This document shows positions 40,157 through 55,157 of a stretch of DNA of 64,000 nucleotides, piece by piece. This stretch comes from a virus (taxonomy: Duplodnaviria; Caudoviricetes): the IMG/VR virus record IMGVR_UViG_3300034071_001210, positions 32,001 through 96,000 of that record; one strand, 5' to 3'. The translations under genes and the position numbers were made by a program. Position 1 is the stretch's first letter. Each line of letters starts with the position of its first letter. Below the pieces are notes generated by a model. The model was not told the origin of the DNA. It saw only the letters and a program-made list of their open reading frames with translations, and did no database searches.

Positions 40157-40158
40157 CT

Positions 40159-41070: not shown

Positions 41071-41124
41071 AAATACTTTAAAATTTTTGAATAAACTTTC
41101 TGGGTCTCTTTGGGGCCCAGAATT

Positions 41125-41354: not shown

Positions 41355-41360
41355 GGTCAC

Positions 41361-41618: not shown

Positions 41619-41624
41619 ACGAGA

Positions 41625-41652
41625 ATTATACACGAATTTGTCGTGACTGCAG
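41625..41652 (-). promoter_or_regulatory. Island promoter P1 (CTGCAGTCACGACA...TATAAT)
   Basis: Conserved 13-copy motif. Confidence 0.85.
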
Positions 41653-41719
41653 CATAGCAGCACGAATAAATTTATATTCGCGTAACCTGGCAAACCTGGC
41701 CCCACCTGGCAAACACAGG

Positions 41720-41747
41720 CAACAGCCCCCCTTTCGGGGGGCTGTTG
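41720..41747 (-). terminator. Hairpin/terminator
   Basis: CAACAGCCCCCC-TTTC-GGGGGGCTGTTG. Confidence 0.7.
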
Positions 41748-41769
41748 GTTCCCTTCCCTCCCTCGAGGG

Positions 41770-42066
41770 TTATCCGCGGTTCAGGTAGCGTTCGTATGAC
41801 TCGTCGTCCATCCGTTCGCCTGTACCGCTGTAGTAGCGGTCATCATCCCCTTCGCGGGGTTCATCCTCATCGTGGCAGGCGGGACCTGCATCACAGGCAC
41901 CCTCGCATGACTCACGATCCGCCTGTGCGTCCAAGTGTTCCTTCAAGTCCGCATCGCGGTCTGCGGCTTCGGTGCATCCGGGGCATAGCCCGTCTACGTA
42001 TTGATCCATGCTCGTGCAGGTGCAGGGTAGGTCTGAGTGATTGACGGTGGTGGTGGTGTTTGCCAT
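41770..42066 (-). CDS. Small acidic Cys-containing early protein (leaderless)
   Basis: MANTTTTV...CTC...CPGC...CEGAC; ATG 6 nt after the -10 box. Confidence 0.75.
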   Translation of the reverse strand: MANTTTTVNHSDLPCTCTSMDQYVDGLCPGCTEAADRDADLKEHLDAQADRESCEGACDAGPACHDEDEPREGDDDRYYSGTGERMDDESYERYLNRG

Positions 42067-42072
42067 GTCGGT

Positions 42073-42100
42073 ATTGTACTCGATCTTGTCGTGACTGCAG
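42073..42100 (-). promoter_or_regulatory. Island promoter P2
   Basis: CTGCAGTCACGACAAGATCGAGTACAAT. Confidence 0.85.
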
Positions 42101-42115
42101 CGCAGGGGGTGAAAT

Positions 42116-42316
42116 TTATTTGTTGCAGCGCAGGGTTTCGCAGAACGCATCGTTGTCTGCCAAGTTCGCAGCGAGTTGATCGAGTTCCTGCGGAGTCATC
42201 GCGGCAAACTTAAACGCGGCAACTTCGGCTTCCAATTTGTTGATGCGAGCGTGCAGCGCAGCGATATTGTCCTGATTGACTTTCCATTCCGAGGGTATGT
42301 AGTTCTTTGGGTGCAT
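42116..42316 (-). CDS. Small early coiled-coil protein (leaderless)
   Basis: ATG 6 nt after the -10 box. Confidence 0.75.
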   Translation of the reverse strand: MHPKNYIPSEWKVNQDNIAALHARINKLEAEVAAFKFAAMTPQELDQLAANLADNDAFCETLRCNK

Positions 42317-42322
42317 GGCGGT

Positions 42323-42350
42323 ATTGTACGATACTTTGTTGTGACTGCAG
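42323..42350 (-). promoter_or_regulatory. Island promoter P3
   Basis: CTGCAGTCACAACAAAGTATCGTACAAT. Confidence 0.85.
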
Positions 42351-42396
42351 GCCGCAGGCCGTCACCAATTTATCTAAATTTATTTGTGCTCCCCAT

Positions 42397-42424
42397 CTGC
42401 AGTCACAACAAACTATCGTACAAT
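42397..42424 (+). promoter_or_regulatory. Island promoter P4 (divergent from P3)
   Basis: CTGCAGTCACAACAAACTATCGTACAAT. Confidence 0.85.
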
Positions 42425-42430
42425 ACACTC

Positions 42431-42820
42431 GTGCTACAGAACACCACCTCCACCCGTCCGATCCACTTCCACCTCCAAGCCTCGACTTTGCCGCTCTCCG
42501 CAATTCTGCTCGACCTGCCTGCTAACCTCCCTGCACGCTCCGCGTTCTTGTACAGCGTTCTCGACTCCGGTTGGATTCGTGTTGCGTTCCGCAAGGATGA
42601 CGGCACCTGCACGATTCGACTCTGCACTCGCAACCCTACGCTTGTTGCCAAGTTCGGTTCGCGTTACGATGTTCAGGGTATCAAGAATTCGGAGTTCAAT
42701 TCAAACGGTCTTGAAACCATCGTGTACTTCGACCATGCGGCAGGTGCGCTCCGGTGCTTCCGTGTGATGCGAGTCGATGGCTGCGGCATCGATGCCGTCA
42801 GTATCGAGAACAACCACTAA
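42431..42820 (+). CDS. SH3/WYL_2-like (DUF2693-like) early protein (leaderless, GTG)
   Basis: IRVAFRKDDGTCTIRLCTRN...IVYFDHAAGALRCFRV. Confidence 0.7.
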   Translation: MLQNTTSTRPIHFHLQASTLPLSAILLDLPANLPARSAFLYSVLDSGWIRVAFRKDDGTCTIRLCTRNPTLVAKFGSRYDVQGIKNSEFNSNGLETIVYFDHAAGALRCFRVMRVDGCGIDAVSIENNH

Positions 42821-42864
42821 CCCGAACGGGGGGGAGAATTTAAATATTCTCTCCCCCTCCGCGG

Positions 42865-42892
42865 CTGCAGTCACAACAAGATCGCGTATAAT
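42865..42892 (+). promoter_or_regulatory. Island promoter P5 (no start codon at +1)
   Basis: CTGCAGTCACAACAAGATCGCGTATAAT. Confidence 0.85.
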
Positions 42893-42900
42893 GCACTCAT

Positions 42901-42979
42901 ACCTACCCCGCCCGAAGCACCGCCCCTAAGTGGACAACCCCACTTCGAATGACAATGGGCACGCAGAGGCGGGGTAGGT
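42901..42979 (+). ncRNA. Candidate structured small RNA / 5' leader
   Basis: 12-bp closing stem ACCTACCCCGCC/GGCGGGGTAGGT starting near the predicted +1; inner AAGTGG/CCACTT and GCCC/GGGC stems. Confidence 0.45.
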
Positions 42980-43016
42980 TTCCCGGTCACTCAAACTTAA
43001 CTGAAAGGTCACAACA

Positions 43017-43214
43017 ATGCTCAAGATGATTATCGATGGTGGCTACCAAATGGTTTATGACGCTCAAGGATTGTGGGCTACCCTTGCTCACGGGTACACG
43101 ATTGCCCCGGGACAAGAGTTGCAGTTTGCAGAACTCTTTCACTCCGGTACGGACGAGGAACGATTGCTGATCCGCAACAACTTGCTTCACCAGAAGCAGA
43201 TGGAACTAATCTAA
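43017..43214 (+). CDS. Small early hypothetical protein
   Basis: GAAAGG RBS; 65 aa. Confidence 0.7.
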   Translation: MLKMIIDGGYQMVYDAQGLWATLAHGYTIAPGQELQFAELFHSGTDEERLLIRNNLLHQKQMELI

Positions 43215-43270
43215 CGAGGTGGTGCTCGAGACAAGATCCACGCCCCTTCGGGGGCGTGGATCTCATTGAT

Positions 43271-43355
43271 CTACTATCAGCACAGCCCTCTGGGGCTGTG
43301 CTGATAGTTGTGGTGGACGGTATGGATGCCGCCGATAACAAGAATATGAAATAAA
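43271..43355 (+). repeat. Hairpin module H1 (CTACTATCAG...CTGATAGTTG + GGA tract + CCGATAA + UP-like element)
   Basis: Hairpin 43271-43310, inner stem CACAGCCC/GGGCTGTG. Confidence 0.9.
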
Positions 43356-43369
43356 TTGTACACCCTACC

Positions 43370-43397
43370 CTGCAGTCACGACAATATCGCTTACAAT
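43370..43397 (+). promoter_or_regulatory. Island promoter P6
   Basis: CTGCAGTCACGACAATATCGCTTACAAT. Confidence 0.85.
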
Positions 43398-43403
43398 ACG
43401 CCC

Positions 43404-43856
43404 ATGCTCTGCACCACTTTCAACAGCGTCTTTGACCTCTTCGCCTCTAACTTCCGTTTCGCCGAGTGCCTGCGTTCCCCCCTCAAGACTGAGGTCGTGG
43501 ATGAATTCACGATCCGCAACCGTTCCAACTACACTCGTGTTGAGTGTGGCAATACTTGGGGTTGGGTTGCAGACCTGAATGTCGGTGGCTTGCGTATCGC
43601 TCACACGAACGGATCGAACATGGCTGATGTGTCCACCCGTTCGCTCGATACCGATCACCAAGTGCGTTGCTCATATACTGCGGACGAACTCCGCAAGATG
43701 GCGTACACGATGTTGGCTGCGGCTAACCACATCGACACTCGCGATTCGGAGAAGAATCAACTACTTCGCCGTCCGAACGGTCAACCGCTCCGTAAGGAGT
43801 TCGTATCGTCCCCCGACTTTGACGAATACCTGAAGTACGAACTGAAGGCAGTCTGA
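43404..43856 (+). CDS. Early hypothetical protein (leaderless)
   Basis: ATG 6 nt after the -10 box; 150 aa. Confidence 0.8.
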   Translation: MLCTTFNSVFDLFASNFRFAECLRSPLKTEVVDEFTIRNRSNYTRVECGNTWGWVADLNVGGLRIAHTNGSNMADVSTRSLDTDHQVRCSYTADELRKMAYTMLAAANHIDTRDSEKNQLLRRPNGQPLRKEFVSSPDFDEYLKYELKAV

Positions 43857-43908
43857 ACCCTGGAAGGGAGGGACTAGAAAGAAATGAATAATTTCTAGTC
43901 CCCCCCGT

Positions 43909-43936
43909 TTGCAGTCACGACAAACTAAGGTACAAT
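43909..43936 (+). promoter_or_regulatory. Island promoter P7
   Basis: TTGCAGTCACGACAAACTAAGGTACAAT. Confidence 0.85.
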
Positions 43937-43942
43937 ACGCAC

Positions 43943-44080
43943 ATGGCAGAGAACACCACCAAACCGGATGAAACCCCCCGCAAACCAATTCGCTGCAACG
44001 AAGGCACAGCCCGGGAAGCACGGCTGCGCGACTGCATTCGACTGCTCACCCCAATGAAAGTTCGCAAGGTATCGACATGA
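43943..44080 (+). CDS. Small early protein (45 aa, leaderless, not in ORF track)
   Basis: MAENTTKPDETPRKPIRCNEGTAREARLRDCIRLLTPMKVRKVST; ATGA overlap with the next gene. Confidence 0.7.
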   Translation: MAENTTKPDETPRKPIRCNEGTAREARLRDCIRLLTPMKVRKVST

Positions 44081-44313
44081 ACAGCACCCTCGAAATTACC
44101 CGGATCCGAAAGACAACCCGGACAATTGAACTGAACCCCAAAGAAATCGCCATCCTCCAGGATATGATCTTTCGCAGGAAGGTAGAGACAAGATTGGAAA
44201 TGAACGGTTACACCTACCGTGATGAATACGGTTCAGACTTTCAAATCGAAGCGGACTTCTACTATAAAGCGTTGGGATTTCTTCAGACCAAACTTGACAA
44301 CCTCACCAAGTAA
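44077..44313 (+). CDS. Early hypothetical protein
   Basis: ATGA-coupled, 78 aa. Confidence 0.75.
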   Translation: MNSTLEITRIRKTTRTIELNPKEIAILQDMIFRRKVETRLEMNGYTYRDEYGSDFQIEADFYYKALGFLQTKLDNLTK

Positions 44314-44328
44314 AGGTAGACTACCAAC

Positions 44329-44592
44329 ATGAAACACGTTCCCAAGTCTCTGCTGTATGCTCAAGTGGACAACATCAACGCCGTATTGCAGACCAAGCCC
44401 GGTAACCGATTAGTTCTGCAACACGCCTTCGGCGGGTTTCAGTTGCAGCAAGAGGTTATGTACCCTCCGTCATGTAGTGTAGGATTCATTTCAATCTCGA
44501 CCGACTATGTGAGCAAGCGTGAAATGAACGATTATCTGAACGCACTTGTGGTGGGCATGGCACTCCGTGCTAACCAAGTGCAACCGATCTAA
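44329..44592 (+). CDS. Early hypothetical protein
   Basis: AAAGG RBS; LQHAFGGFQL motif. Confidence 0.75.
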   Translation: MKHVPKSLLYAQVDNINAVLQTKPGNRLVLQHAFGGFQLQQEVMYPPSCSVGFISISTDYVSKREMNDYLNALVVGMALRANQVQPI

Positions 44593-44664
44593 CGAGGTGG
44601 TGCTCGCAACAACTGAAGAGGATTCGTCCCTGCCCACCCTTCGGGGTGGGCTAGGTTGTTATAT

Positions 44665-44757
44665 CTACTATCAGATTTGGCCCCCCCAAATCTGATAGTT
44701 GTGGATGGGACGGGACGGCCTGTGGATAACTTGTGGATAAGTATTTCAAATAATTTT
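44665..44757 (+). repeat. Hairpin module H2 containing two tandem DnaA boxes
   Basis: Hairpin 44665-44701; TGTGGATAA at 44721-44729 and 44732-44740. Confidence 0.9.
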
Positions 44758-44768
44758 ATGCTCACTTG

Positions 44769-44796
44769 CTGCAGTCACGACAATATCGCTTACAAT
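44769..44796 (+). promoter_or_regulatory. Island promoter P8
   Basis: CTGCAGTCACGACAATATCGCTTACAAT. Confidence 0.85.
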
Positions 44797-44802
44797 ACCG
44801 AC

Positions 44803-45387
44803 ATGAACACCACCACCACCACCAACGTCCGAAACCGAGCCTACTACGCCGCAGAGAATGCTATCCTCAACTGCCGTGCTACTATGAACTTCCGCTCTCT
44901 TGCCGAGTGTGCTACGCCCGATGTCCGTGCTGCTGCCGAGACATGGTACGCCGAGGCGGGTCAGTTTGCTCGAGACCTCCCGCGTCACGATTGGTCATTC
45001 GAAACTGCCTGCGCTGTAGTCGCGGCATTCTCGCCTCGGATCCGATGGGATCAGAATAAGCGTAAGGCGTTCCAATACGCTCATGGCATCATGCCAAAGG
45101 GTCTGCGCTCCCATATTGCCGCCGCAGACCGATGCGTAGCCAAAGGATTCGATGGCTTGGATGGTCTGAAGACAAACGCCTTTGCCCGGGCTATTGCCGG
45201 GGATCTGAATGCGGTCGTGATCGACATTTGGATGTGTCGGGCTGCGGGGCTCGGTAAGGATTCGCTGACAACCGGACAGTACCGTGCAATTTCCGATGCC
45301 GTGCGAACGGTAGCCCGGGAGCACAACATGGCTCCCGCCGTTATGCAGGCACTGATTTGGATCGTGGTCAGGGGGAAGGCACAATGA
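44803..45387 (+). CDS. Helical protein resembling the HhH-GPD glycosylase-like phage family (leaderless)
   Basis: WY..A, AVVAAFSP..RW..N, GLKT.AF, VVIDIWM, MQALIW. Confidence 0.6.
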   Translation: MNTTTTTNVRNRAYYAAENAILNCRATMNFRSLAECATPDVRAAAETWYAEAGQFARDLPRHDWSFETACAVVAAFSPRIRWDQNKRKAFQYAHGIMPKGLRSHIAAADRCVAKGFDGLDGLKTNAFARAIAGDLNAVVIDIWMCRAAGLGKDSLTTGQYRAISDAVRTVAREHNMAPAVMQALIWIVVRGKAQ

Positions 45388-45521
45388 ACCACCGCCCCGG
45401 CAAATTCGTCCACGATGCCTTTCGCGAAGGGATTCGCCTGCGCTCCAAAACCTGGGGCAAGAAAACGCGGGATCCCCGGAAGGCTCGGAGGGACGGGAAA
45501 CAGGAACTCCGTTCAATCTAA
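45384..45521 (+). CDS. Small basic protein (45 aa, not in ORF track)
   Basis: MNHRPGKFVHDAFREGIRLRSKTWGKKTRDPRKARRDGKQELRSI; ATGA overlap. Confidence 0.65.
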   Translation: MNHRPGKFVHDAFREGIRLRSKTWGKKTRDPRKARRDGKQELRSI

Positions 45522-45522
45522 C

Positions 45523-45550
45523 AATATCACCGGAAACGGTGATATTTTTT
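45523..45550 (+). terminator. Intrinsic terminator
   Basis: AATATCACCG-GAAA-CGGTGATATT + T tract. Confidence 0.8.
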
Positions 45551-45555
45551 ATTAT

Positions 45556-45641
45556 CTACTATCAGGATTTGGCCCATCTAAATCCTGATAGTTGTCCAGG
45601 ACGGGATGGACTTGACCGATAATAATAATATGAAATAATTT
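45556..45641 (+). repeat. Hairpin module H3
   Basis: Hairpin 45556-45594; inner GATTTGG/CTAAATC with a G-T pair. Confidence 0.9.
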
Positions 45642-45653
45642 GTACACCCTGTG

Positions 45654-45681
45654 CTGCAGTCACGACAATTTGTATTACAAT
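45654..45681 (+). promoter_or_regulatory. Island promoter P9
   Basis: CTGCAGTCACGACAATTTGTATTACAAT. Confidence 0.85.
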
Positions 45682-45687
45682 ACCGAC

Positions 45688-46083
45688 ATGAAGAACGCCA
45701 CCTCCATCATCTCCGTCCTCCTCATTCCCGCAGACCTCACCAAGCCATGCAGCATGGTCAACATCCGTAAGGGTGACTACGCTCTGATCGATATGTACAA
45801 GTGGATGGACTGCGACTATGTGCAACGCCTCGAAACTCCCAAGAAGAACATGATTCTGTGGGTTGACGAAGAGGGAAGCATCGAGTCGCTCAAGCGCAAG
45901 CCTGTACTCAATGTTCGCGGCAGTATTCTTGCCGGACAGCCAATCATGGGCAACGTGATTCTTGCCGGACAAGATTCCCTGTACGGTGTTGACGGTATCG
46001 AGTTTGGTACCGTCAAGGAAATGATCAAGCGTCTTGAGAACAGCGCACAGCAAGTGATTGCCGAACATCCTTCCCTGAAATAA
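45688..46083 (+). CDS. DUF3846-like early protein (leaderless)
   Basis: LWVDEEG....LN..S....IMGNVILAG. Confidence 0.75.
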   Translation: MKNATSIISVLLIPADLTKPCSMVNIRKGDYALIDMYKWMDCDYVQRLETPKKNMILWVDEEGSIESLKRKPVLNVRGSILAGQPIMGNVILAGQDSLYGVDGIEFGTVKEMIKRLENSAQQVIAEHPSLK

Positions 46084-46154
46084 TGAGGTGGTGCTCAGGG
46101 GGATGGGATTCGTTCCCATCCCCTACCGCCCTCAAATAAATCTTTCTTTCTTCT

Positions 46155-46182
46155 GTGCAGTCACAACAAACCCAGGTATAAT
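46155..46182 (+). promoter_or_regulatory. Island promoter P10
   Basis: GTGCAGTCACAACAAACCCAGGTATAAT. Confidence 0.8.
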
Positions 46183-46188
46183 ACTCAT

Positions 46189-46488
46189 ATGACAATGACA
46201 ACCACCGACATCTCTGAACTTCGTACTCTCCTCTCAGGAGGATATGTCGTAAATGTTTCCTTCACAAAGAAGGACAGGACAATACGCGAAGCCCAGATCA
46301 CTCGTAACCTGCGATTGATGCCGATGACATCTCATCCAAAGAATGTTCGTAAGGTGGATCCGAAATACATCTTCGCGTTTGATATTGATAAGCAAGATTG
46401 GATTTGCTTTCACGAATCACAGTTCGTTTCATTGTCTCATCCTTGGCGCTTGGAGAACGAACAACTAGCATTATGCCAGGGGGCTTGA
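46189..46488 (+). CDS. SH3/WYL_2-like (DUF2693-like) early protein (leaderless)
   Basis: VNVSFTKKDRTIREAQITRN...FDIDKQDWICF. Confidence 0.75.
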   Translation: MTMTTTDISELRTLLSGGYVVNVSFTKKDRTIREAQITRNLRLMPMTSHPKNVRKVDPKYIFAFDIDKQDWICFHESQFVSLSHPWRLENEQLALCQGA

Positions 46489-46599
46489 TCAGCCCTATAA
46501 CCGCCATCGGTGCAACGAGAAGCGGCAGTATGAGAGTCTCAATAGAGTCCTGGGCTTATACTAATAGCCACCCTTCTTTAAGGGTGGTTATTTTATTAT

Positions 46600-46683
46600 C
46601 TACTATCAGGAAGTCGCCCCCTCGACTTCCTGATAGTTGTGGACGGCATGGACGGTACCGATAACAAGAATATAAAATAATTT
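46600..46683 (+). repeat. Hairpin module H4
   Basis: Hairpin 46600-46639; inner GAAGTCG/CGACTTC; preceded by a terminator at about 46565-46597. Confidence 0.9.
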
Positions 46684-46694
46684 GATATACCTGT

Positions 46695-46722
46695 TTGCAG
46701 TCACGACAGGATCGTATACAAT
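46695..46722 (+). promoter_or_regulatory. Island promoter P11
   Basis: TTGCAGTCACGACAGGATCGTATACAAT. Confidence 0.85.
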
Positions 46723-46728
46723 ACCGTC

Positions 46729-46920
46729 ATGACCACACCCGAACCTTATAACACCGTTGAAGACTTCATGGATACCGATGAACCCACCGAGGCTGAAATG
46801 ATTGCCGAACTGATGGAGGAAGGCTACACACAGGACGAAGCCAAGCGTATGATCGGTGACGAGTACGATGCCGATGATGAAGACTCCTACGAGCCACTCG
46901 AAGACGAGGATTCAGAATGA
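46729..46920 (+). CDS. Extremely acidic small early protein (leaderless)
   Basis: 63 aa dominated by D/E. Confidence 0.75.
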   Translation: MTTPEPYNTVEDFMDTDEPTEAEMIAELMEEGYTQDEAKRMIGDEYDADDEDSYEPLEDEDSE

Positions 46921-47231
46921 GTTACAAGATGACCATCCATATGAAGAAAGCCAGGGCAAGCCCCTTTGAGAAGACCTTTGAAAGACGAGCAGAGAGAATG
47001 CTCGCTCTTGTGATGCGTACTCTTGTCAGAGTAGACTTTGGTGACAAGGATGTAGGAATCTTTATTGAGAACTGCCCTATGGTTAACATCCCGATGGGAT
47101 TTCTAAAGTTTGATGACAAGCGTTGGACGGGAAAAGAAATTGCTCAGTTTTGCAAATATATTGATCTTTCTTCTGAGTTTGGCGTTAATGTCACCTTCCT
47201 CGACCCCGAACCTGTTACAATACCAACATGA
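46917..47231 (+). CDS. Early hypothetical protein
   Basis: ATGA-coupled operon. Confidence 0.75.
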   Translation: MSYKMTIHMKKARASPFEKTFERRAERMLALVMRTLVRVDFGDKDVGIFIENCPMVNIPMGFLKFDDKRWTGKEIAQFCKYIDLSSEFGVNVTFLDPEPVTIPT

Positions 47232-47446
47232 TCCCATCCACCACCAACATCTCCGACCTGATTGAAACCATTCGCAAGTTTGTCGATGAGACTCCGGATT
47301 GGATGGAGAGCGACAAATATGTTGCTAGGCTTGGAGTTGCATACCACATTCTCACAACAATGTCTGACCCGGATATGGTCACAGACGAAGAGTACGAGTT
47401 CATCATCGCCATTCACAACACCATCAAGGAACGGAACGCACAATGA
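47228..47446 (+). CDS. Early hypothetical protein
   Basis: ATGA-coupled operon. Confidence 0.75.
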   Translation: MIPSTTNISDLIETIRKFVDETPDWMESDKYVARLGVAYHILTTMSDPDMVTDEEYEFIIAIHNTIKERNAQ

Positions 47447-47787
47447 GTACAAACAAGTTTGAAGGATTCTTCGAGAGTGACAACCACCCCGCCATGAAGA
47501 TGGTTGTTCCAACACCATCACAGATCATTGAGACTCTGATGATGATCTGCGGACAGAATCATCAGTTCTACAAGGATGCAAGCATTCGCCTTATCATCTG
47601 TGGTGGACTTGATGTTGTCGAGAAGCACATCATCAAGGCTCGTGATGAAGGACGGGATCCCGGCATTCATGTTGGCTACGCAGCCTTTATGATGCTTCTT
47701 GCGGATCGCATGGTGGATTCGTATGATGACTACGCAGGTGACAAAGAACGCGAACTGTTTCCTCTTCAGTATGATGAGGATGAATGA
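47443..47787 (+). CDS. Early hypothetical protein
   Basis: ATGA-coupled operon. Confidence 0.75.
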   Translation: MSTNKFEGFFESDNHPAMKMVVPTPSQIIETLMMICGQNHQFYKDASIRLIICGGLDVVEKHIIKARDEGRDPGIHVGYAAFMMLLADRMVDSYDDYAGDKERELFPLQYDEDE

Positions 47788-47946
47788 TTTCAATACACAG
47801 CCTCACATAAGTCAGTTAAATTAGAGCGCAGTAGATGCTTCGAAATTACGACTGCCGTGGGGCAACCGTAGCAGCCAATTTCCTGGCTTGCCGTATGAAA
47901 AAAGGTATGCGGGTGGAGACCCGGCTACAACAGGGTCTCCAAGTTT

Positions 47947-48019
47947 GGGAACGTAGCGCAGTTGGTAGCGCAAATGACTTTTAATCATTTGGTCGTGGGT
48001 TCGAGCCCCACCGTTCCCA
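47947..48019 (+). tRNA. tRNA-Lys(TTT)
   Basis: GGGAACG/CGTTCCC acceptor stem; anticodon loop CT-TTT-AA; GTTCGAG T-loop. Confidence 0.93.
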
Positions 48020-48029
48020 CTAAGGAGAT

Positions 48030-48275
48030 ATGATGAAAACGGCAGAAATTAAAACCTTGCAGAAGACATTGAAAGCCATCAAAGACAATGACGTTAAAGA
48101 TGCTGTTCACTATATGATTAAGTTTCTACATGAACACGGTCATGCAGTTGCCATCTTCACGCCAGAGGAAATGGTTGAAACTACAGCCACAGATGAGGAG
48201 ATTGAAGAGTCGATGATTACTGCTGGGTTTATGACAATGGATTGCTTTAAGATCAACAAAGAAGAAGACGAATAA
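48030..48275 (+). CDS. Hypothetical protein
   Basis: AAGGAG RBS. Confidence 0.75.
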   Translation: MMKTAEIKTLQKTLKAIKDNDVKDAVHYMIKFLHEHGHAVAIFTPEEMVETTATDEEIEESMITAGFMTMDCFKINKEEDE

Positions 48276-48284
48276 GGAAACATC

Positions 48285-48581
48285 ATGACAGATCGAGATC
48301 ATTGTATGGAAGTCGTGAAGGCGTATGACAAAGTAACCATCGTGATGGATTGCATCATGGAGCATTGGTTAGAAGGCAACTGCAATCCACCCAAGGAACT
48401 GATCGATGAGTACTTCGAGACAAAGGATGCAGCCCTTCAGGCGTTGTATAATGACTTCGAGAACATCAAAGCGAATCAAGTCTTTGCTGAACGAACTCGT
48501 GGTATGAACAGAGCATTTTATAAAAAAATTGATAAACAATTTGGAGTAACTGAAACGCCCATGTTGTTTGAAGAGGATTGA
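48285..48581 (+). CDS. Hypothetical protein
   Basis: AAGGA RBS. Confidence 0.75.
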   Translation: MTDRDHCMEVVKAYDKVTIVMDCIMEHWLEGNCNPPKELIDEYFETKDAALQALYNDFENIKANQVFAERTRGMNRAFYKKIDKQFGVTETPMLFEED

Positions 48582-48586
48582 TTTAC

Positions 48587-48659
48587 GGCACGGTAGTCCA
48601 AAGGCAGAGACAAACGACTTAAAATCGTTCAAGTGTGGGTTCGACTCCCACTCGTGCTA
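48587..48659 (+). tRNA. tRNA-Leu(TAA), short variable loop
   Basis: GGCACGG/TCGTGCT acceptor stem; AACGA-CT-TAA-AA-TCGTT; GTTCGAC. Confidence 0.85.
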
Positions 48660-48664
48660 CATCT

Positions 48665-48738
48665 ATTCCCGTAACTCAGTTGGATAGAGTAACAGATTTC
48701 TAATCTGTAGGTCGTTGGTTCGAATCCAACCGGGAATG
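48665..48738 (+). tRNA. tRNA-Arg(TCT)
   Basis: ATTCCCG/CGGGAAT acceptor stem; ACAGA-TT-TCT-AA-TCTGT; GTTCGAAT. Confidence 0.93.
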
Positions 48739-48739
48739 C

Positions 48740-48767
48740 TTGACTTGATTGAAAGGAGAGACATAAT
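48740..48767 (+). promoter_or_regulatory. Sigma70-type promoter (TTGACT-16-CATAAT)
   Basis: Hexamers read directly, upstream of tRNA-Ile. Confidence 0.55.
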
Positions 48768-48869
48768 GTATTCAATACCATATTTTATGTTTGACGGTGT
48801 TCATAAAACCGTATAGCGGTAACCTACGGTTGCACGGACAAAGAGGCATCCGTATGAAGGCTTCATTAC

Positions 48870-48944
48870 AGAAGGGTGGCTGAAATTAGATATAGCGCAC
48901 ACCTTATAAGTGTGAGTATATGGGTGCAATTCCCATCCCTTCTA
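48870..48944 (+). tRNA. tRNA-Ile(TAT)
   Basis: AGAAGGG/CCCTTCT acceptor stem; CACAC-CT-TAT-AA-GTGTG; non-canonical T-loop TGCAATT. Confidence 0.8.
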
Positions 48945-48946
48945 TT

Positions 48947-49258
48947 ATGAAAACTATTAAAACTCATATTCCCCAATTTCACTTTGAACCATTACTAATG
49001 ATGTCTTGGCAAGTAGACCATGATGTGATCCATTTCAAGATGGAAGATGCTTTTGACATTGAAGAAATTGATCTTCGTTTAGTCGTTGGTCTTACTGATG
49101 ATGGGATGCCTTCTGTTGATGAAGATGACATCATTGAGGCTGTTGCTGAATCCGTTTACGGTCATGAGTATGAGGTGTATCCGTACAAGGCAATTCGTTT
49201 TCTGAAAAACGATTTGATTCCATATATAAACGAACATTTTCCAAAACCCATTTCATAA
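48947..49258 (+). CDS. Acidic hypothetical protein
   Basis: ATG 2 nt after the tRNA-Ile 3' end; 103 aa. Confidence 0.7.
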   Translation: MKTIKTHIPQFHFEPLLMMSWQVDHDVIHFKMEDAFDIEEIDLRLVVGLTDDGMPSVDEDDIIEAVAESVYGHEYEVYPYKAIRFLKNDLIPYINEHFPKPIS

Positions 49259-49358
49259 GTTCCTGCCCGTGAGAGTCGTCTGGGTCATACCATCTTAATC
49301 TTCTTTAAGATTAAGATAACATGGGATATGACGCTCCTACACGGGCAGGAACTTTTTT
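49257..49358 (+). other. Long rod-like hairpin ending in a T tract (terminator and/or ncRNA)
   Basis: AAGTTCCTGCCCGTG/CACGGGCAGGAACTT outer stem; ATCTTAATCTT/AAGATTAAGAT inner stem. Confidence 0.65.
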
Positions 49359-49367
49359 ATTAATAAT

Positions 49368-49451
49368 CTACTATCAGGAGTTCCTTTATTGGAACTCCTG
49401 ATAGTTGTGGATGGGACAGGACGTGACCGATAATAATAATGTCAAATATTT
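49368..49451 (+). repeat. Hairpin module H5
   Basis: Hairpin 49368-49407; inner GAGTTCC/GGAACTC. Confidence 0.9.
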
Positions 49452-49464
49452 GCTCAACCCAATC

Positions 49465-49492
49465 TTGCAGTCACAACATTTGCGGTTACAAT
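49465..49492 (+). promoter_or_regulatory. Island promoter P12
   Basis: TTGCAGTCACAACATTTGCGGTTACAAT. Confidence 0.85.
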
Positions 49493-49498
49493 GTACAT

Positions 49499-50443
49499 AT
49501 GAACAGCGACAACTACAATTTCTTATCGTCTGATGTCTCCCTCGTCCCTGCCAAGAACGACACCTTCGTTCCGTGGGGTCACTTCGAGGACATCGCAACC
49601 ATCCTCGCCTCCAAGCACTTTGCTCCCGTGTACATCACGGGTATGTCGGGCAACGGCAAGACCACTATGGTCGAGCAGATCTGTGCGTCTGCCGGACGCG
49701 AGATCATTCGCGTCAACATCACCGCCGAGACTGATGAAGATGACCTCATCGGTGGATTTCGTCTTATCAACGGTGAAACCAAGTTCGTGTTCGGTGGCGT
49801 GATTCAAGCCATGCAGCGTGGAGCGATTCTGCTCTTGGATGAGATCGACCTTGGTTCGGAGCGCATGATGTGCTTGCAGCCTGTGCTTGAAGGCAAGGGC
49901 ATCTATGTGAAGAAGATCAGTCAGTATGTGCGTCCTGCTGCCGGGTTCAACATTGTTGCTACTGCCAACACCAAGGGCAAGGGCGAGTCTGATCGGTTTG
50001 TCGGTACTCGTGTTATGAACGAAGCGTACCTTGATCGGTTCTCGTATTGGTTCGAGCAGGACTACGCGGACAAGACCATCGAAGCCCGTATCATCATTCG
50101 CAAGATGGGTGCATTCGGCAAGGTGGACAAGGAGTTTGCTCAGTACCTCACGAAGTGGGCGGATACAATTCGTCTTGGCTTCAAGGAAGGTGGACTCGAT
50201 GACATTATCACGACTCGCCGACTCGAAGAGATCTGCAAGGCATTCGCCATCTTCGGCAACAAGGAGAAGGCAATCAAGTTGACTCTGACGCGATTCGATG
50301 CGTCAACCAAGGAGGCGTTCTACAATTTGTACACGAAGATCGACCCAACAATTCTGCCCGTGCCTGAAGGCATGGACAAGCCAATTCAGTATGCAGGACA
50401 GCAGCCTGTTGCTCCGGACACTAACTACGCCGTTAACGCCTAA
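49499..50443 (+). CDS. cobS: CobS-like / MoxR-type AAA+ ATPase (leaderless)
   Basis: GMSGNGKT, RVNITAETDEDDLIGGFRL, LLLDEID, ATANTKGKG, NEAYLDRF, ITTRRL. Confidence 0.88.
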   Translation: MNSDNYNFLSSDVSLVPAKNDTFVPWGHFEDIATILASKHFAPVYITGMSGNGKTTMVEQICASAGREIIRVNITAETDEDDLIGGFRLINGETKFVFGGVIQAMQRGAILLLDEIDLGSERMMCLQPVLEGKGIYVKKISQYVRPAAGFNIVATANTKGKGESDRFVGTRVMNEAYLDRFSYWFEQDYADKTIEARIIIRKMGAFGKVDKEFAQYLTKWADTIRLGFKEGGLDDIITTRRLEEICKAFAIFGNKEKAIKLTLTRFDASTKEAFYNLYTKIDPTILPVPEGMDKPIQYAGQQPVAPDTNYAVNA

Positions 50444-50461
50444 CCGAAAGAGGACACTACC

Positions 50462-50740
50462 ATGCCATATCTTAACAAGCGCAATCGTTTCATCGCAGCC
50501 GCAAAGCAGTACGCCGAGGATCACAAGAAGAATAATTTCTTCTTCACCAAGGACGAACTCAGGACAATCGCTTCTTCCATCAACATGAAAGGCGCACCAA
50601 CCTGGGTGTTGAATGAATGCAAATGTGATGTTCGTACTCTTGCTCACAGCAAGAAGTGCTACGACATGAGTGCTTTGATTCAGCCTGTTTCAGTTCCCGT
50701 GATGGTTCCAAGTATTGTGGTTCACCCAGTCTCAGTCTGA
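50462..50740 (+). CDS. Early hypothetical protein
   Basis: GAGGA RBS; 92 aa. Confidence 0.75.
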   Translation: MPYLNKRNRFIAAAKQYAEDHKKNNFFFTKDELRTIASSINMKGAPTWVLNECKCDVRTLAHSKKCYDMSALIQPVSVPVMVPSIVVHPVSV

Positions 50741-50807
50741 CGCTGTTTGTAGTGTTTAATGTGACATAGACACGACCTCTCCCACTCGTTGTGGGTGAGG
50801 TTGCTGT

Positions 50808-50893
50808 CTACTATCAGGATTCGGCCCCTCTGAATCCTGATAGTTGTGAAGGACAGGATGGGACTGGCTGATAATAATAATATGAAATAATTT
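50808..50893 (+). repeat. Hairpin module H6
   Basis: Hairpin 50808-50846; inner GATTCGG/CTGAATC with a G-T pair. Confidence 0.9.
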
Positions 50894-50905
50894 GGTGGGT
50901 ATGGT

Positions 50906-50933
50906 TTGCAGTCACGACAGTATCGGTTACAAT
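50906..50933 (+). promoter_or_regulatory. Island promoter P13
   Basis: TTGCAGTCACGACAGTATCGGTTACAAT. Confidence 0.85.
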
Positions 50934-50939
50934 ATGCAC

Positions 50940-53018
50940 ATGAACACATCTCTCTCCATCTTCGCCAAGGCACTCGCGTCCGAAAACCTCTCGTTCTCCT
51001 TTAGCAACAAGGCTGAGACTGCATCGTTCGATGTCAAGTCCCGGCACCTCGTCATGCCCATTTGGAAGGTTTCCGAAACGGTGCAGACCATGTTGATCGC
51101 CCATGAGATCAGTCACGCCCTGTGGACTCCTTACGAGTTGTCCCGTACTCTCCTTGATGCTGCCGAAGCCGAGGGGTACAAGATCGACAAGTTGCAGCGT
51201 ATCGCCAACATGATCGAGGATGTTCGTATTGAGAAGTTGATGAAGCAGAAGTTCCCCGGTACTCGCCGTGACTTCTTCTTGGGGTACAAGGAGATCAACG
51301 ACCTTGACCTCTTTCAGTTCAACACCTTGGACTTGAGTGCCATGACTCTCAACTCTCGCCTCAACATTCACTTCAAGTGGGGTGTTCCGGGATTCATTGA
51401 TGTTCAACTCTCTGCCCAAGAGCAGGAGATCGCGGATATGGTGGACAGCGTTGTCACTTTCGAGCAGTGCATCGAATTGGCAAAGTACCTGTACGGTGAT
51501 CCGGATGCTGATGGCAAGAAGCATGAAGTCGAGGACAACAACAAGGGTTTGGCATTAGGAAACTCTATCGATGGTTCTCAAGATCCTTCGTTTGAGAATA
51601 TGTTGAGTGGATTGGCAAGTCGCAAGGGTTCGCCGTTGGCTTCCACGACTGTGGTCATCGGTGGAGTGAAGGACTTGAACCGACAGATCATCAGCACCGA
51701 GCAGGTGTTGGAATCGTTCACCATTCATCCTTGGGCAGAAGAGACTCTCAACAACACCCCTGACCTCACGGCATACCGTACCTTCGTCCGTGAGTCTGAT
51801 GCATTCGTTCGTCAGTTGGTTGCTCAGTTCGAGCGCAAGAAGGCAGCGGACGAGATTCGCCGTGAACGCCCAAAGCAGACGGGTCAGTTGAACCTTGATC
51901 GTCTTCATCAATACCGCACCCATGACGATATCTTCCTGTCGAAGATCGTTAAGAAGGATGGCAAGAATCACGGGGTCATCTTTATGATCGACTTCTCCGG
52001 TTCGATGCAGCCTACGCTCAATCACGCAATCCTTCAGGTTCTTCAGTTGGTTTGGTTCTGTGAGAAGGCAAAGATTCCGTTTGAGGTGTTTGGCTTCACC
52101 GATGTTGGTGAGCATTACATTCCGAACCAACCCGGTTTCGTCAAGGGTCAGGATTCACTTGCGAATGAAGCGCATACTTGCCGTAACAGTATTCGCTACG
52201 GTGATGCTCGACTGATTACGCTTGCTTCATCCCGTGACGATGCGGCAAAGCGTGAACAACTTCTTGCCCTTGTCTACGAGACTTTCGTAACCAACACCCG
52301 TATGACTCCTGCAACGCTTCGTCTGAGCGGAACCCCAACGGTGGAAACTGTGGCTGTTGCTTCACAGTTTATGAAAGAGTGGATTGTGGCAAACAATGTG
52401 CAGATTCCTACGCTCATGGTTGTCACGGACGGTGAGCCAAATGGTTTCAACCTTGTGAACGATGCCACAGATTACACCACCTATGGTGATGCAGGAAGTC
52501 TGACTGTGGTGAACCATGTTGCCGATACCGTGACTCGAACTACGATTACGAATCGTGACAATCTGTCGAACGCAGTCATCAGTACGATGCTTGATTCGAT
52601 GCGGACAAAGTTTGGTGCGAGAATCGTTGGAATGTTTGTTGGTGGTAACAAGGCATTGCCTACCGGGATTTACAATAAGTTCTGCATTGCATACAACGAG
52701 AACAACTCGTACCAAGATCACGAACGATACTTGGCTGCAAGTGAGATGTACAAGTCTGAAGGTTGCATTCTTGCTCACTCCGAATGCTCACAAGGATACG
52801 ATGAGTTCTTCATCATCAAGACTCCGCAGATCGTCAAGGACGAGGACGCGATTGCCGATAGCGGAACCTTCACCAAGATCAAGAACACCTTCATTCGTAC
52901 AATGGGTAAGCGTTCTTGCAGTCGAGTGTTCCTCTCACGGTATGTGGACATTGTGTCCGGACAGCCTATTCGTAAGGGGGCTGATGCTCTCTACGGAAAG
53001 AAGACGGCTAATGCATAA
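50940..53018 (+). CDS. CobT-like metallopeptidase + vWA domain protein (leaderless)
   Basis: AHEISHALWT, NMIEDVRIE, MIDAS IDFSGSM, SGTP, VVTDGE. Confidence 0.88.
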   Translation: MNTSLSIFAKALASENLSFSFSNKAETASFDVKSRHLVMPIWKVSETVQTMLIAHEISHALWTPYELSRTLLDAAEAEGYKIDKLQRIANMIEDVRIEKLMKQKFPGTRRDFFLGYKEINDLDLFQFNTLDLSAMTLNSRLNIHFKWGVPGFIDVQLSAQEQEIADMVDSVVTFEQCIELAKYLYGDPDADGKKHEVEDNNKGLALGNSIDGSQDPSFENMLSGLASRKGSPLASTTVVIGGVKDLNRQIISTEQVLESFTIHPWAEETLNNTPDLTAYRTFVRESDAFVRQLVAQFERKKAADEIRRERPKQTGQLNLDRLHQYRTHDDIFLSKIVKKDGKNHGVIFMIDFSGSMQPTLNHAILQVLQLVWFCEKAKIPFEVFGFTDVGEHYIPNQPGFVKGQDSLANEAHTCRNSIRYGDARLITLASSRDDAAKREQLLALVYETFVTNTRMTPATLRLSGTPTVETVAVASQFMKEWIVANNVQIPTLMVVTDGEPNGFNLVNDATDYTTYGDAGSLTVVNHVADTVTRTTITNRDNLSNAVISTMLDSMRTKFGARIVGMFVGGNKALPTGIYNKFCIAYNENNSYQDHERYLAASEMYKSEGCILAHSECSQGYDEFFIIKTPQIVKDEDAIADSGTFTKIKNTFIRTMGKRSCSRVFLSRYVDIVSGQPIRKGADALYGKKTANA

Positions 53019-53040
53019 GGCTTAGTAATACAAAGCACAG

Positions 53041-53076
53041 ACCCCGTACCTGGAAGGAGAGAGCCAGGTACGGGGT
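53041..53076 (+). terminator. Hairpin/terminator
   Basis: ACCCCGTACCTGG/CCAGGTACGGGGT. Confidence 0.7.
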
Positions 53077-53089
53077 TATGTCATTGCAG

Positions 53090-53160
53090 CTACTATCAGA
53101 TCCTTCTTTTCAGGATCTGATAGTTGTTATCGGACGGGATGGACGGTACGGACGATAACC
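53090..53160 (+). repeat. Hairpin module H7 (no island promoter downstream)
   Basis: Hairpin 53090-53126 followed by CGGACGGGATGGACGGTACGGACGATAAC. Confidence 0.9.
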
Positions 53161-53220
53161 GCGGATGGCCTCAAAGATTCTGTAATAAATTCGAGCTAAT
53201 CTGAATTGTGGTACAGTTGC

Positions 53221-53248
53221 TTGACTACCCCCATATATGGTGTATAGT
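53221..53248 (+). promoter_or_regulatory. Sigma70-type promoter (TTGACT-16-TATAGT) facing a non-coding region
   Basis: Hexamers read directly. Confidence 0.6.
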
Positions 53249-53511
53249 ATAAGTCTGTTCATGCGCCCTATAATCCCCGAGTCCTACGTGAAATATTCTC
53301 GTCCTTATAGGACTCGGGGTTATGGGACGTTACATGTTATCGGTATGTCATTTCTTCTCAGTATTCTGAGCCTTGCATTGGTTATAGGCTGTGCTATACT
53401 ATTCATGATACTCGCAGGTATTATTCACCCTTCCAGAATACTCGGACAGTATTCAGCTGGACAAGATTCTCAAAAAATTCTGAATATTTCTGAGGGCCCA
53501 GAAGAAAAAAT

Positions 53512-53625
53512 CTACTATCAGGGCTTCCTGGATGTCTACCGTATGCGTAGGCCGGACGGGATCTAGACTCGGACGGGACCTGGAGAGGGTTCGGCTACTC
53601 TCCTCTCTGGGTCCTGGACGGGATA
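53512..53625 (+). repeat. Degenerate module H8 (CTACTATCAG + three GGACGGGA)
   Basis: Left foot present, right foot lost; GGACGGGA at about 53554, 53571 and 53616. Confidence 0.6.
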
Positions 53626-53964
53626 TAGCGTTTTGTAAGGCTATTGCAGTTTTTTAAGAATATTTGCGTACTTCCAGGTACTTCCTGGATGGCGTTTGTC
53701 AAATTCTCTAAGAAATTGCAAATATTTAATAAAATTTGTAGTATTTACTTGACTCGTAGAATCGATTCTAAGCCCTTGGGGGGTCTTGGACGCGATTTGA
53801 TGCCTTGAAGGTGCTCAAAGGGCTCTAAGGGGGGTTCAGAGACGATTAGAGGGGGTTTGGGTGACACTCACTAACTGTACATCCCTCAAATTTTCTTTAA
53901 ATTTCTTCACCCACTTAGTAATTTTCATTCCCCACAATGCCCCATAATACCCCACTCCATTATT

Positions 53965-54366
53965 TTAATCTTTTTTCTTCTCTTCTCCATCAATATTTTC
54001 TAAATCTTTTTGAGTAATTACATATGCCTTGATACTCTTCTTATGTTCTATATCGTGTGCTTTCTTTACTCTATTCAATCCGTCTGCTACTGATATGGTT
54101 CCATCCTTGAGTTTGATTCCCAATATTGGATAACTGGTATCTGCATCCATCATTCTTTTCTTGTGATTCTTATTATCCATATCGTATTGCTTGTTCCACC
54201 ATTTTAATGCGTCTGTATCTTTGATGTCTACAGTTACTTGTTTAGTATGTTTTTTAGCCCATGCGTATACATCAGCAACTTTGTAATCCTTATTGGTTAC
54301 ATCAGAATGCATTTTCTGATCTTTCCAATTTTCTGCTTCTGCTAAAAATTCTTTAAATTTCTTCAT
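53965..54366 (-). CDS. ParB/Srx-like protein with capsid-targeting leader
   Basis: MKKFKEFLAE start; DTSYPILG...VADGLNRVKKA. Confidence 0.7.
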   Translation of the reverse strand: MKKFKEFLAEAENWKDQKMHSDVTNKDYKVADVYAWAKKHTKQVTVDIKDTDALKWWNKQYDMDNKNHKKRMMDADTSYPILGIKLKDGTISVADGLNRVKKAHDIEHKKSIKAYVITQKDLENIDGEEKKKD

Positions 54367-54370
54367 GGTA

Positions 54371-54568
54371 TTACTCTCCTCCACCACCATCTCCACCACC
54401 TTCACCACCACTCTCTCCCTCTGTATTATGTTCATGTCCATAGAAATTAAACCCATAATATGGTGATGTATATCTCTTTGCTTTCTTCTTGGTTCTTTTC
54501 TTTTTCTTTTTGGGCATATCAAGATAAACATCATAGTTTTCTTCTAAAAATTCTTTAAATTTCTTCAT
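54371..54568 (-). CDS. Small protein with capsid-targeting leader
   Basis: MKKFKEFLEE; basic patch; Gly/Glu tail. Confidence 0.7.
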   Translation of the reverse strand: MKKFKEFLEENYDVYLDMPKKKKKRTKKKAKRYTSPYYGFNFYGHEHNTEGESGGEGGGDGGGGE

Positions 54569-55101
54569 TGTTTTGTTCCGTGTATAATTCCCTTTTCCAA
54601 TTTTGCATCAGGAAATGTTACTTGTACTGTCTTTAAATAATCTCTTAATCTTTGATTTCGTTGCCATGAGTCTTTTCCAGTCTGCTTTCCTGCTCCCGAT
54701 CTATCTCCTTCGTAAACATCAACATAGACTCTTCCACCCGGTTTCAGGGCATCGTGGGCTTGTTGAAGTACTGTATGATGATCTGTCTCATCCTGTATGA
54801 CATTCAGTACATTGAAGAGTGATGCGGTATCTGCCTGCCCTGATCCGGCTGTTTGTAATACTCTTTCATTGTGGTCGGCTGGTCGATTGTATGGATCATA
54901 AACATAAGCACGTACTTGACGATCTCCCAAGAAGTCTGTTCCCATATCATGTTTACCACCACCAATGTCAATATGAGTCGTATCTTTTTGCCAACCATGA
55001 AGTTTCTCTACAGTTTTAAAGGCTTGGGCTACTTGAGGTCTTGAAGTTGCCGCAGAAGTAATATTCTGGTCTTCTAACAAAAATTCTTTAAATTTCTTCA
55101 T
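54565..55101 (-). CDS. Class I SAM-dependent methyltransferase-like protein with capsid-targeting leader
   Basis: MKKFKEFLLE; IDIGGG, YDPYN, NVLNVI, LKPGG. Confidence 0.8.
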   Translation of the reverse strand: MKKFKEFLLEDQNITSAATSRPQVAQAFKTVEKLHGWQKDTTHIDIGGGKHDMGTDFLGDRQVRAYVYDPYNRPADHNERVLQTAGSGQADTASLFNVLNVIQDETDHHTVLQQAHDALKPGGRVYVDVYEGDRSGAGKQTGKDSWQRNQRLRDYLKTVQVTFPDAKLEKGIIHGTKQ

Positions 55102-55157
55102 GGTATAATATTTATTGAATAGTTGACTTATTGGTATTATGTTCTATAATTAATCCC

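Follow-up and report, generated by a model that had tools for sequence, protein, structure and literature searches.

A hairpin with a fixed closing helix and a covarying interior at gene-cassette boundaries in the early island of a T4-like phage

The DNA analyzed here, referred to as the window, is a stretch of 64,000 nucleotides (positions 32,001 to 96,000 of the IMG/VR record IMGVR_UViG_3300034071_001210), and the subject of this work is a hairpin that recurs between early genes of the phage from which it derives. The window is a fragment of an uncultured T4-like myovirus that encodes portal, large terminase, sheath, baseplate wedge, gp32 and gp33, together with a gp23-type capsid protein that is 54% identical to cyanophage gp23. 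Its early island, located at 40-54 kb, has a GC content of 44-53% as compared to 31-39% in most of the remaining window. The island genes are mostly small and without assigned function, apart from a MoxR-type ATPase/VWA protein pair, and their content differs among relatives, which marks the island as a hyperplastic region. Thirteen near-identical promoters were found there (41618-50940; ten on the + and three on the - strand, diverging from about 42370), with the consensus TTGCAG, 17 nt, TACAAT and an AT-rich stretch upstream; they are sigma70-like by consensus match alone. For 12 of the 13 the start codon (ATG, once GTG) lies 6-7 nt past the -10 hexamer, which predicts leaderless mRNAs; none could be located for the promoter at 42866.

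The hairpin was sought as a 5' foot CTACTATCAG and a 3' foot CTGATAGTTG separated by 15-25 nt. Exactly seven matches are present in the window, all of them on the + strand, intergenic and inside the early island, whereas shuffled sequence is expected to give 0.00. This agrees with the original prediction, made from the sequence of the window, of seven full copies and one half copy in a single orientation. The copies, labeled A to G, are as follows:

43271-43310, + strand: hairpin A, with 10-nt feet and a 20-nt interior
44665-44701, + strand: hairpin B, with a 17-nt interior, upstream of the DUF7178 gene
45556-45594, + strand: hairpin C, with a 19-nt interior and one G-T pair
46600-46639, + strand: hairpin D, with a 20-nt interior
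49368-49407, + strand: hairpin E, with a 20-nt interior, upstream of the MoxR-like ATPase gene
50808-50846, + strand: hairpin F, with a 19-nt interior and one G-T pair, upstream of the VWA/CobT-like gene
53090-53126, + strand: hairpin G, with a 17-nt interior, at the right edge of the island
53512-53521, + strand: half copy, the 5' foot alone, unfolded and followed by three GGACGGGA repeats

Each full copy folds as one hairpin with an uninterrupted helix of 13-16 pairs. With DNA parameters, z values range from -7.0 to -11.2 across the seven copies and none of 200 shuffles was as stable; with RNA parameters, the energies lie between -18.7 and -30.6 kcal/mol. The interiors differ in every copy and are all paired, with a single G-T pair in each of two copies (C and F), as had been described. 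The feet were likewise correctly described as paired. However, neither the T/T position nor the outer C-G is paired in the predicted folds, and the supposed 'closing C-G' therefore adds nothing. The solitary 5' foot at 53512 has no partner foot, and the surrounding stretch does not fold (z -0.87). It lies in the right edge of the island (53130-53960), where about 800 nt are apparently non-coding and contain, besides the lone foot, GGACGGGA repeats and several short inverted repeats.

The sites share one order of elements: an upstream stop codon, a terminator-like hairpin, the foot hairpin, an invariant T, two to five GGAY repeats, a GATAAYAA box, an AT-rich stretch, the promoter and, 6 nt past the -10, the ATG. 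The original prediction had ascribed this grammar to all copies. It holds at six sites, five of which carry the GATAAYAA box, while at site B (44665) two DnaA-box-like repeats stand in its place; hairpin G (53090) precedes a different promoter. DnaA boxes as a general feature were rejected, as they occur only at copy 44665. The hairpins preceding the seven copies and the promoter modules following them are:

43234-43263, + strand: terminator-like hairpin before A, UUCG loop and weak T tail, 7 nt before hairpin A
44632-44651, + strand: terminator-like hairpin before B, UUCG loop and weak T tail
45523-45546, + strand: intrinsic-terminator-like hairpin before C, with a T-run, 9 nt before hairpin C
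46563-46592, + strand: intrinsic-terminator-like hairpin before D, with a T-run, 7 nt before hairpin D
49259-49352, + strand: 94-nt hairpin before E, a 13-bp closing helix followed by a T-run, read from the sequence
50773-50803, + strand: terminator-like hairpin before F, weak T tail, 4 nt before hairpin F
53037-53081, + strand: terminator-like hairpin before G, weak T tail, 8 nt before hairpin G
43311-43406, + strand: module A, with GGAY repeats, GATAAYAA box, AT-rich stretch, -35 at 43370, -10 at 43392 and leaderless ATG at 43404
44702-44805, + strand: module B, with GGAY repeats, two DnaA-box-like repeats, AT-rich stretch, promoter and leaderless ATG at 44803
45595-45690, + strand: module C, leaderless ATG at 45688
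46640-46731, + strand: module D, leaderless ATG at 46729
49408-49501, + strand: module E, leaderless ATG at 49499
50847-50942, + strand: module F, leaderless ATG at 50940
53127-53250, + strand: module G, with GGAC repeats and then a different sigma70-like promoter at 53221-53248

The distance from the terminator-like hairpin to the foot hairpin is 4-21 nt, and that from the foot hairpin to the -35 is 55-67 nt in the window. The upstream hairpins often carry a UUCG or GAAA loop, and a consensus terminator scan predicts a good T-run in only two of the seven. The same scan called none of the foot hairpins in the window as an intrinsic terminator; they are followed by TGTGG-type tails without a T-run. 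The alternative that they are plain terminators thus does not hold for the window copies by consensus, although a T-run is present in the compound relatives described below. Three further promoters (42866, 43910 and 46156) have no foot hairpin, and directly before each of them lies a stem-loop with an AT-rich loop:

42820-42866, 43860-43910 and 46095-46156: polyG...polyC stem-loops before the hairpin-less promoters, in the layout known from phage RB49

Relatives were collected by pattern scans of IMG/VR and of JGI/ENA metagenomes, and all of them are metagenome fragments. The same feet occur in about 20 related contigs; the capsid proteins of the two largest relatives are 78% identical to that of the window, and in a 91.8-kb relative the hairpins are confined to the early island. 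With eight copies as the seed of a covariance model, 41 copies were recovered on the sense strand, of which 38 are distinct. Nine foot pairs are invariant across the distinct copies and all seven interior pairs show double-sided changes (117 cells), so that the covariation which the original prediction had proposed to look for was indeed found. In total, 99.7% of the cells are paired, a value reached by none of 500 shuffles and by no slid register. Wobble pairs are G-T only, on the sense strand, and amount to 6 of 580 cells, and the loops are 73% pyrimidine on that strand. The T/T mismatch, taken to be invariant, is so only in the window: among 39 distinct forms, position 2 is T.T in 30, T-A in 5, A-T in 2 and A.A in 2.

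The original prediction recognized no described family in the sequence, and in agreement with this an Rfam covariance-model scan of 40000-56000 with E up to 1 returned only four tRNAs and chance-level matches. Moreover, comparison of the island and of one module with 50,697 phage records by megablast and distant blastn gave no matches, and the feet had only four single, chance-level matches in 185,579 species genomes, so they are not a host repeat. A loose core pattern gave mostly single chance matches in IMG/VR, the real ones being L024, L058 and the relatives; a match in L061 was rejected as a coding repeat. Thirteen contig ends fall within foot hairpins (L119, L125, L128, L139, L145, L150, L180, L191, L194, L207 and L255) and are attributed to the breaking of short-read assemblies at repeats instead of physical ends of the DNA. 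Contig L154 starts with a perfect palindrome of 84 nt around a hairpin, which was treated as an assembly artefact.

More distant forms of the element were reached by anchoring the search on the DUF7178 gene that follows site B, which yielded 77 loci. Where DUF7178 is 56-66% identical, a compound form is present that consists of the 5' foot, a variable stem-loop, the first five bases of the 3' foot, a T-rich part, a GGAC stretch and the full 3' foot. Its one-sided insert measures 15-25 nt, and G-runs before and C-runs after it often lengthen the long-range helix. Foot variants change together with their partners (ATCAG/CTGAT, ATCAA/TTGAT and ATCCG/CGGAT), the distal copy being changed as well at two loci. 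At the site after DUF7178 in these compound relatives, the 5' foot abuts the stop codon and the hairpin with its T-run is the only terminator present. A compact form is found in two distant T4-like genomes (G004 and G005), which have about 20 core proteins in common with the window, at 25-67% identity and in the same order. There, the same core is a 25-27 bp palindrome with a centre of 5-7 nt; at every junction, also the one preceding the DUF7178 gene, it closely follows a strong terminator. Finally, in a group with DUF7178 at 40-50% identity, other feet (CTTGACA.../...TGTCAAG) are found immediately behind stop codons, with a variable GC hairpin and a T-rich stretch between them. Sister-lineage elements with different feet, in which a TTGACA hexamer is part of the inverted repeat, were seen at L292, L293, L296, L302, L305, L317, L322 and L324; in several of them a downstream C-rich stretch, itself followed by a T-run, is an alternative partner for the inner hairpin's G-rich arm, which could constitute an attenuator-like choice at the stop codon.

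Since the layout recurs across lineages with differing feet, it is old and general in this phage group, and the foot sequence is lineage-specific. Judged by these comparisons, the conserved part of the element is the closing helix, with a core ACTATCAG paired with CTGATAGT, and the enclosed sequence needs only to pair. The foot-to-foot spacing ranges from 5 to about 45 nt across lineages and the distance from the hairpin to the -35 from 47 to 70 nt, and both values bear on the possibility that the element is a protein site at the DNA level. According to this explanation, a strong rival of the insulator reading favoured below although less probable, the palindrome would extrude as a hairpin or cruciform, aided by the AT-rich flanks and by negative supercoiling upstream of a strong promoter, and a phage or host protein would bind the foot duplex. 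The site could then form a roadblock just past the T-run, act jointly with the GGAC direct repeats in regulating the downstream promoter, or serve for loading. With its 25-27 bp, the compact form indeed resembles an operator for a dimeric protein, and the conserved stem, the free loops, the near-perfect Watson-Crick complementarity with rare G-T pairs and the tolerance of both orientations relative to the promoter point in the same direction; candidate small nucleic-acid binders, namely a winged helix-turn-helix protein (28907-29143) and three WYL_2 paralogues, are conserved. However, the range of foot spacings excludes a single binding mode on straight duplex DNA and therefore fits a folded helix, the one-sided insert of the compound forms should block cruciform extrusion, and the variable distance to the -35 leaves no helical phasing with the promoter.

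The history of individual sites was followed by assigning the copies in relatives to the window sites A-G via flank mapping. At orthologous sites the end of the upstream gene and the whole downstream module are about 85-95% identical, and the interior may differ entirely. Thus, at site F the window and three relatives (L180, L191 and L222) share the module and have unalignable interiors. The window F interior recurs at site C of L176, L180 and L189, and the F interior of L191 and L222 adjoins a different gene in L145. At site A, close relatives differ by an exact loop inversion (TCTG in the window as compared to CAGA in L189), and flips of the whole element have occurred, either orientation relative to the promoter being found. 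Exchange thus happens at the hairpin yet stays between the feet. The paired and fast-changing interior is best explained by palindrome-templated repair combined with very short gene-conversion tracts between copies; template-switch repair at quasi-palindromes was first and classically described in T4.

These processes might account for the entire element, which would then be a palindromic linker repeat without a role in expression, its short conserved patches homogenized by the highly active T4-type recombination and its arms kept complementary by template-switch repair and not by selection. Besides the description of template switching in T4, the recurrence of the same interiors at different sites in different genomes and the lineage-specific feet are consistent with such a repeat. 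Likewise, the -35/-10 spacer of the promoters is genome-specific (TGCAGTCACGACA in the window, with different versions in L191 and L145 at the corresponding sites), and these spacers are therefore homogenized inside genomes and not needed as sequence. We nevertheless judge this explanation improbable: the position relative to the terminators is kept even between lineages with a protein identity of only about 50%, identical feet stand in intergenic DNA that is otherwise unalignable, and unselected palindromes tend to be lost and not kept at seven or more sites.

The free variation of the loops is also relevant to an RNA signal of the opposite sense, either nut/put-like antitermination or RNase III-type processing as between the early genes of T7. 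A hairpin followed by a conserved single-stranded G-rich motif does recall boxB/boxA, the helices, 15-18 bp without interruption, are of sufficient length for RNase III, and the sites lie between every few early genes, as in T7. Still, we give little credence to this idea, given that each cassette has its own promoter and terminator and needs neither processing nor antitermination, that the loops, which N-type proteins read, vary freely and even invert, and that RNase III has little sequence specificity and would leave the invariant feet unexplained.

Cassette breakpoints were located by chaining blastn blocks between the window and 17 related contigs, which revealed 13 structural differences within the island. 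Of the breakpoints, seven are no more than a few bases away from one of the promoters at 42099 (- strand), 42866, 43371, 43910 and 46156; examples are 42099(-)/43371(+) in L191 and L143, the end of the 43910 promoter in six contigs, and 42866 as well as 46156 in L189. Further breakpoints coincide with tRNA ends or with terminators that resemble one another. None of the 13 differences has a breakpoint inside a foot hairpin, and the sole translocated gene (the homologue of 43017-43214 in L145) is joined exactly at a small hairpin after a stop codon. Such small hairpins, composed of YGAG, a GTGGTG loop and CTCR, follow the stop codons of three genes (43215-43232, 44593-44610 and 46084-46101); they covary in relatives (CTGG...CCAG in L003 and L272), and their loop resembles a Shine-Dalgarno sequence. 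Two - strand terminators (41720-41747 and 41327-41354) resemble each other and the interior of hairpin A, and L189 and L128 lack the intervening cassette, as though the two terminators had recombined. In L191 and L150, a 312-bp deletion breaks at the 5' edge of the 49259-49352 hairpin.

The island is accordingly variable with promoter-centred crossovers, and the original prediction was right to see a modular cassette system of a T4-type phage in it and to compare it with promoter-early stem-loops (PeSLs). Its expectation that cassettes vary among relatives was also borne out, but the breakpoints lie at promoters or at the small post-stop hairpin, and the suggestion that the foot hairpin is used for cassette excision or shuffling is not supported: by this comparison, it is not the site of either excision or exchange. 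A structure-specific recombination site, attC-like or an HUH hairpin, at which an enzyme would read the folded strand via the mismatch and excise, insert or convert cassettes, is accordingly very improbable. It would account for the replacement of interiors between orthologous flanks with exchange confined between the feet, the T.T/A.A asymmetry in most copies could mark a strand, and 13 contig ends lie inside hairpins, though these are explained by assembly breaks at repeats. Apart from the absence of cassette gain, loss or replacement breakpoints in any hairpin and the joining of the one translocated gene at a small post-stop hairpin, it is contradicted by the promoters that the cassettes themselves carry and by the lack of the mismatch in 7 of the 39 forms. 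The search for a recombinase or HUH gene, which had been recommended, returned no match to PF00589, PF00239 or PF01797 (tyrosine, serine and HUH-Y1, respectively) in 237 kb of relatives (G001-G005), which are partial genomes and therefore weak evidence, and no PF00589 match was found among the approximately 58 open reading frames of the window that were scanned (the ten largest structural ones, the shared core and those of the island). A related idea, to which we assign only a slim chance, is that the closing helix is the site of a dedicated structure- and sequence-specific factor that nicks or cuts the folded hairpin and thereby drives interior replacement and, rarely, cassette exchange between co-infecting phages.

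We tentatively favour the reading that the hairpins are a PeSL-type cassette-boundary insulator, derived from the upstream terminator or backing it up. RNA polymerase would run past the first, often weak, terminator, upon which the nucleic acid would become single-stranded and the hairpin would fold, read-through RNA being the simplest case of the folding molecule; the element could act in RNA or in DNA. The folded hairpin would stop or mark read-through, and each leaderless gene would then be expressed from its own promoter only. The window form is read as terminator-derived because the same closing helix encloses a real terminator in sister phages; it would have arisen from that terminator-enclosing form and would now back up the terminator. 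Such a backup is plausible, given how few of the upstream hairpins (two of seven, by the consensus scan) end in a good T-run. A boundary role at the end of the upstream unit is favoured because the position relative to the terminator is kept, the distance to the promoter and the intervening sequence change, and the helix contains the terminator in many relatives. Additionally, every copy lies after a terminator-like hairpin and before a promoter module, pairing is family-wide with covarying foot variants, and the same layout with different feet is found in a further lineage. The restriction of the hairpins to the early island, the pyrimidine bias of the loops, the confinement of G-T pairs to the sense strand and the location of cassette breakpoints at promoters, as in PeSLs, are in line with this proposal. 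The fixed feet could be due to a factor that recognizes them or to homogenization by recombination among cassettes, and lineage-specific feet fit both.

Several observations weigh against a terminator-derived insulator. The window copies lack a T-run and are hence not intrinsic terminators by consensus, and as they follow another terminator, most transcripts may never contain them. A paired stem of conserved sequence below a free loop is not what RNA-protein recognition usually involves and is more typical of hairpin sites in DNA. Furthermore, the rarity of G-U pairs and the near-perfect complementarity resemble a DNA palindrome, and the loop inversions and whole-element flips indicate little strand constraint. 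Covariation may also be partly mechanical, as template-switch repair can copy changes from arm to arm, and it therefore speaks less strongly for selection than it would in an ordinary RNA.

PeSL cassettes were described in T4-type phages (Arbiol et al., 2010, PMC2839356; Comeau et al., 2014, PMC4122927) and were proposed in 2010 to be linkers that let these phages shuffle host-takeover genes, the stem-loop as a protein target being left open (PMC2839356). Their crossovers were mapped between the -10 and the start codon, a Shine-Dalgarno sequence belongs to their definition, and those of RB49 carry a polyG...polyC stem-loop (PMC2839356; PMC4122927). The window resembles this system in being a T4-type myovirus with a hyperplastic region of small early genes, in an intergenic unit composed of a stem-loop or terminator, an AT-rich stretch and a sigma70-like promoter, in lineage-specific motif versions, and in insertions, deletions and replacements between close relatives with crossovers in the repeated promoter part. 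In addition, the junctions before 42866, 43910 and 46156 carry the polyG...polyC stem-loop of the RB49 type. By contrast, two hairpins are present here instead of one, the second with an invariant base of 8-10 bp and a freely covarying top but without a T-run; the hairpin and the AT-rich stretch are separated by GGAC direct repeats; and the window genes are leaderless, so that the Shine-Dalgarno sequence of the PeSL definition is lacking. The cassette system is thus PeSL-like and new in its second hairpin with a fixed base and a free top and in its GGAC repeats.

It is not an attC site, and the integron analogy drawn by the original prediction does not apply. Despite the common features of an imperfect palindrome at cassette boundaries with conserved ends and a variable tip, and of a strand asymmetry in most copies, the helices here are uninterrupted, without extrahelical bases or an unpaired central spacer, and the mismatch is variable and dispensable. 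Moreover, the cassettes have promoters and terminators of their own, their breakpoints are away from the hairpin, and no integrase was found (PF00589; G001-G005 and the approximately 58 window reading frames). Intrinsic and tandem terminators are similar in that a stable GC-containing hairpin is found at the 3' end of the transcription unit, and the sister copies with a T-run are the sole terminator. The window copies differ from them in the missing T-run, in pyrimidine loops of 5-7 nt as compared to the UUCG/GNRA tetraloops of the adjacent true terminators, and in a stem base conserved in sequence. REP/BIME elements are likewise short, dispersed intergenic palindromes that follow genes in both orientations; protection of mRNA 3' ends and binding of proteins have been proposed as their roles. 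However, REP sequences are conserved throughout and the foot hairpin only at its base, the foot hairpins are phage-specific, and no RAYT/Y1 transposase was found (PF01797, partial relatives).

Other candidate features of the sites were tried and rejected. A pseudoknot of the C-rich loop with the GGA tract would require a pairing that is inconsistent across copies, and a G-quadruplex in the GGAY tract has four G-runs in some copies only. The 10-codon reading frame starting from the GGATGG motif is kept in four copies, with differing codons and without a sign of purifying selection. The feet contain a WATCAR-like core of an IHF site and lack its TTR part, and their TACTAT is -10-like without a consistent -35. 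A presumed resemblance of the feet to a Tet operator half-site was also dropped.

Two further properties of the island concern its genes. Its four tRNAs (Lys-UUU, Leu-UAA, Arg-UCU and Ile-UAU) all read A-ending codons. The GC-rich early genes may be tuned to a higher-GC host or may escape AT-DNA-binding silencers, and the tRNAs may serve the AT-rich late genes. The three WYL_2 paralogues, which carry a Sm-like beta-barrel domain, are encoded at 37924-38496, 42431-42820 and 46189-46488, the latter two inside the island, and the first is kept in the distant G004/G005 lineage; these proteins are possibly nucleic-acid binders.

With dozens of natural variants in which the conserved part of a stem-loop is separated from its variable part, this lineage represents a clean natural experiment. 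One closing helix occurs in three layouts, as a compact palindrome, an extended hairpin and a terminator-enclosing form, and a sister lineage has different feet. Should a nicking factor act on the closing helix, the hairpins would form an integron-like boundary system in lytic T4-type phages, with the lineage-specific feet as compatibility labels. The 13 near-identical leaderless promoters in a GC-rich block of an AT-rich phage additionally provide a useful model for the tuning of early genes to the host. Taken all together, the family opens directly testable questions, namely whether the helix insulates transcription, binds a factor or triggers local gene conversion.

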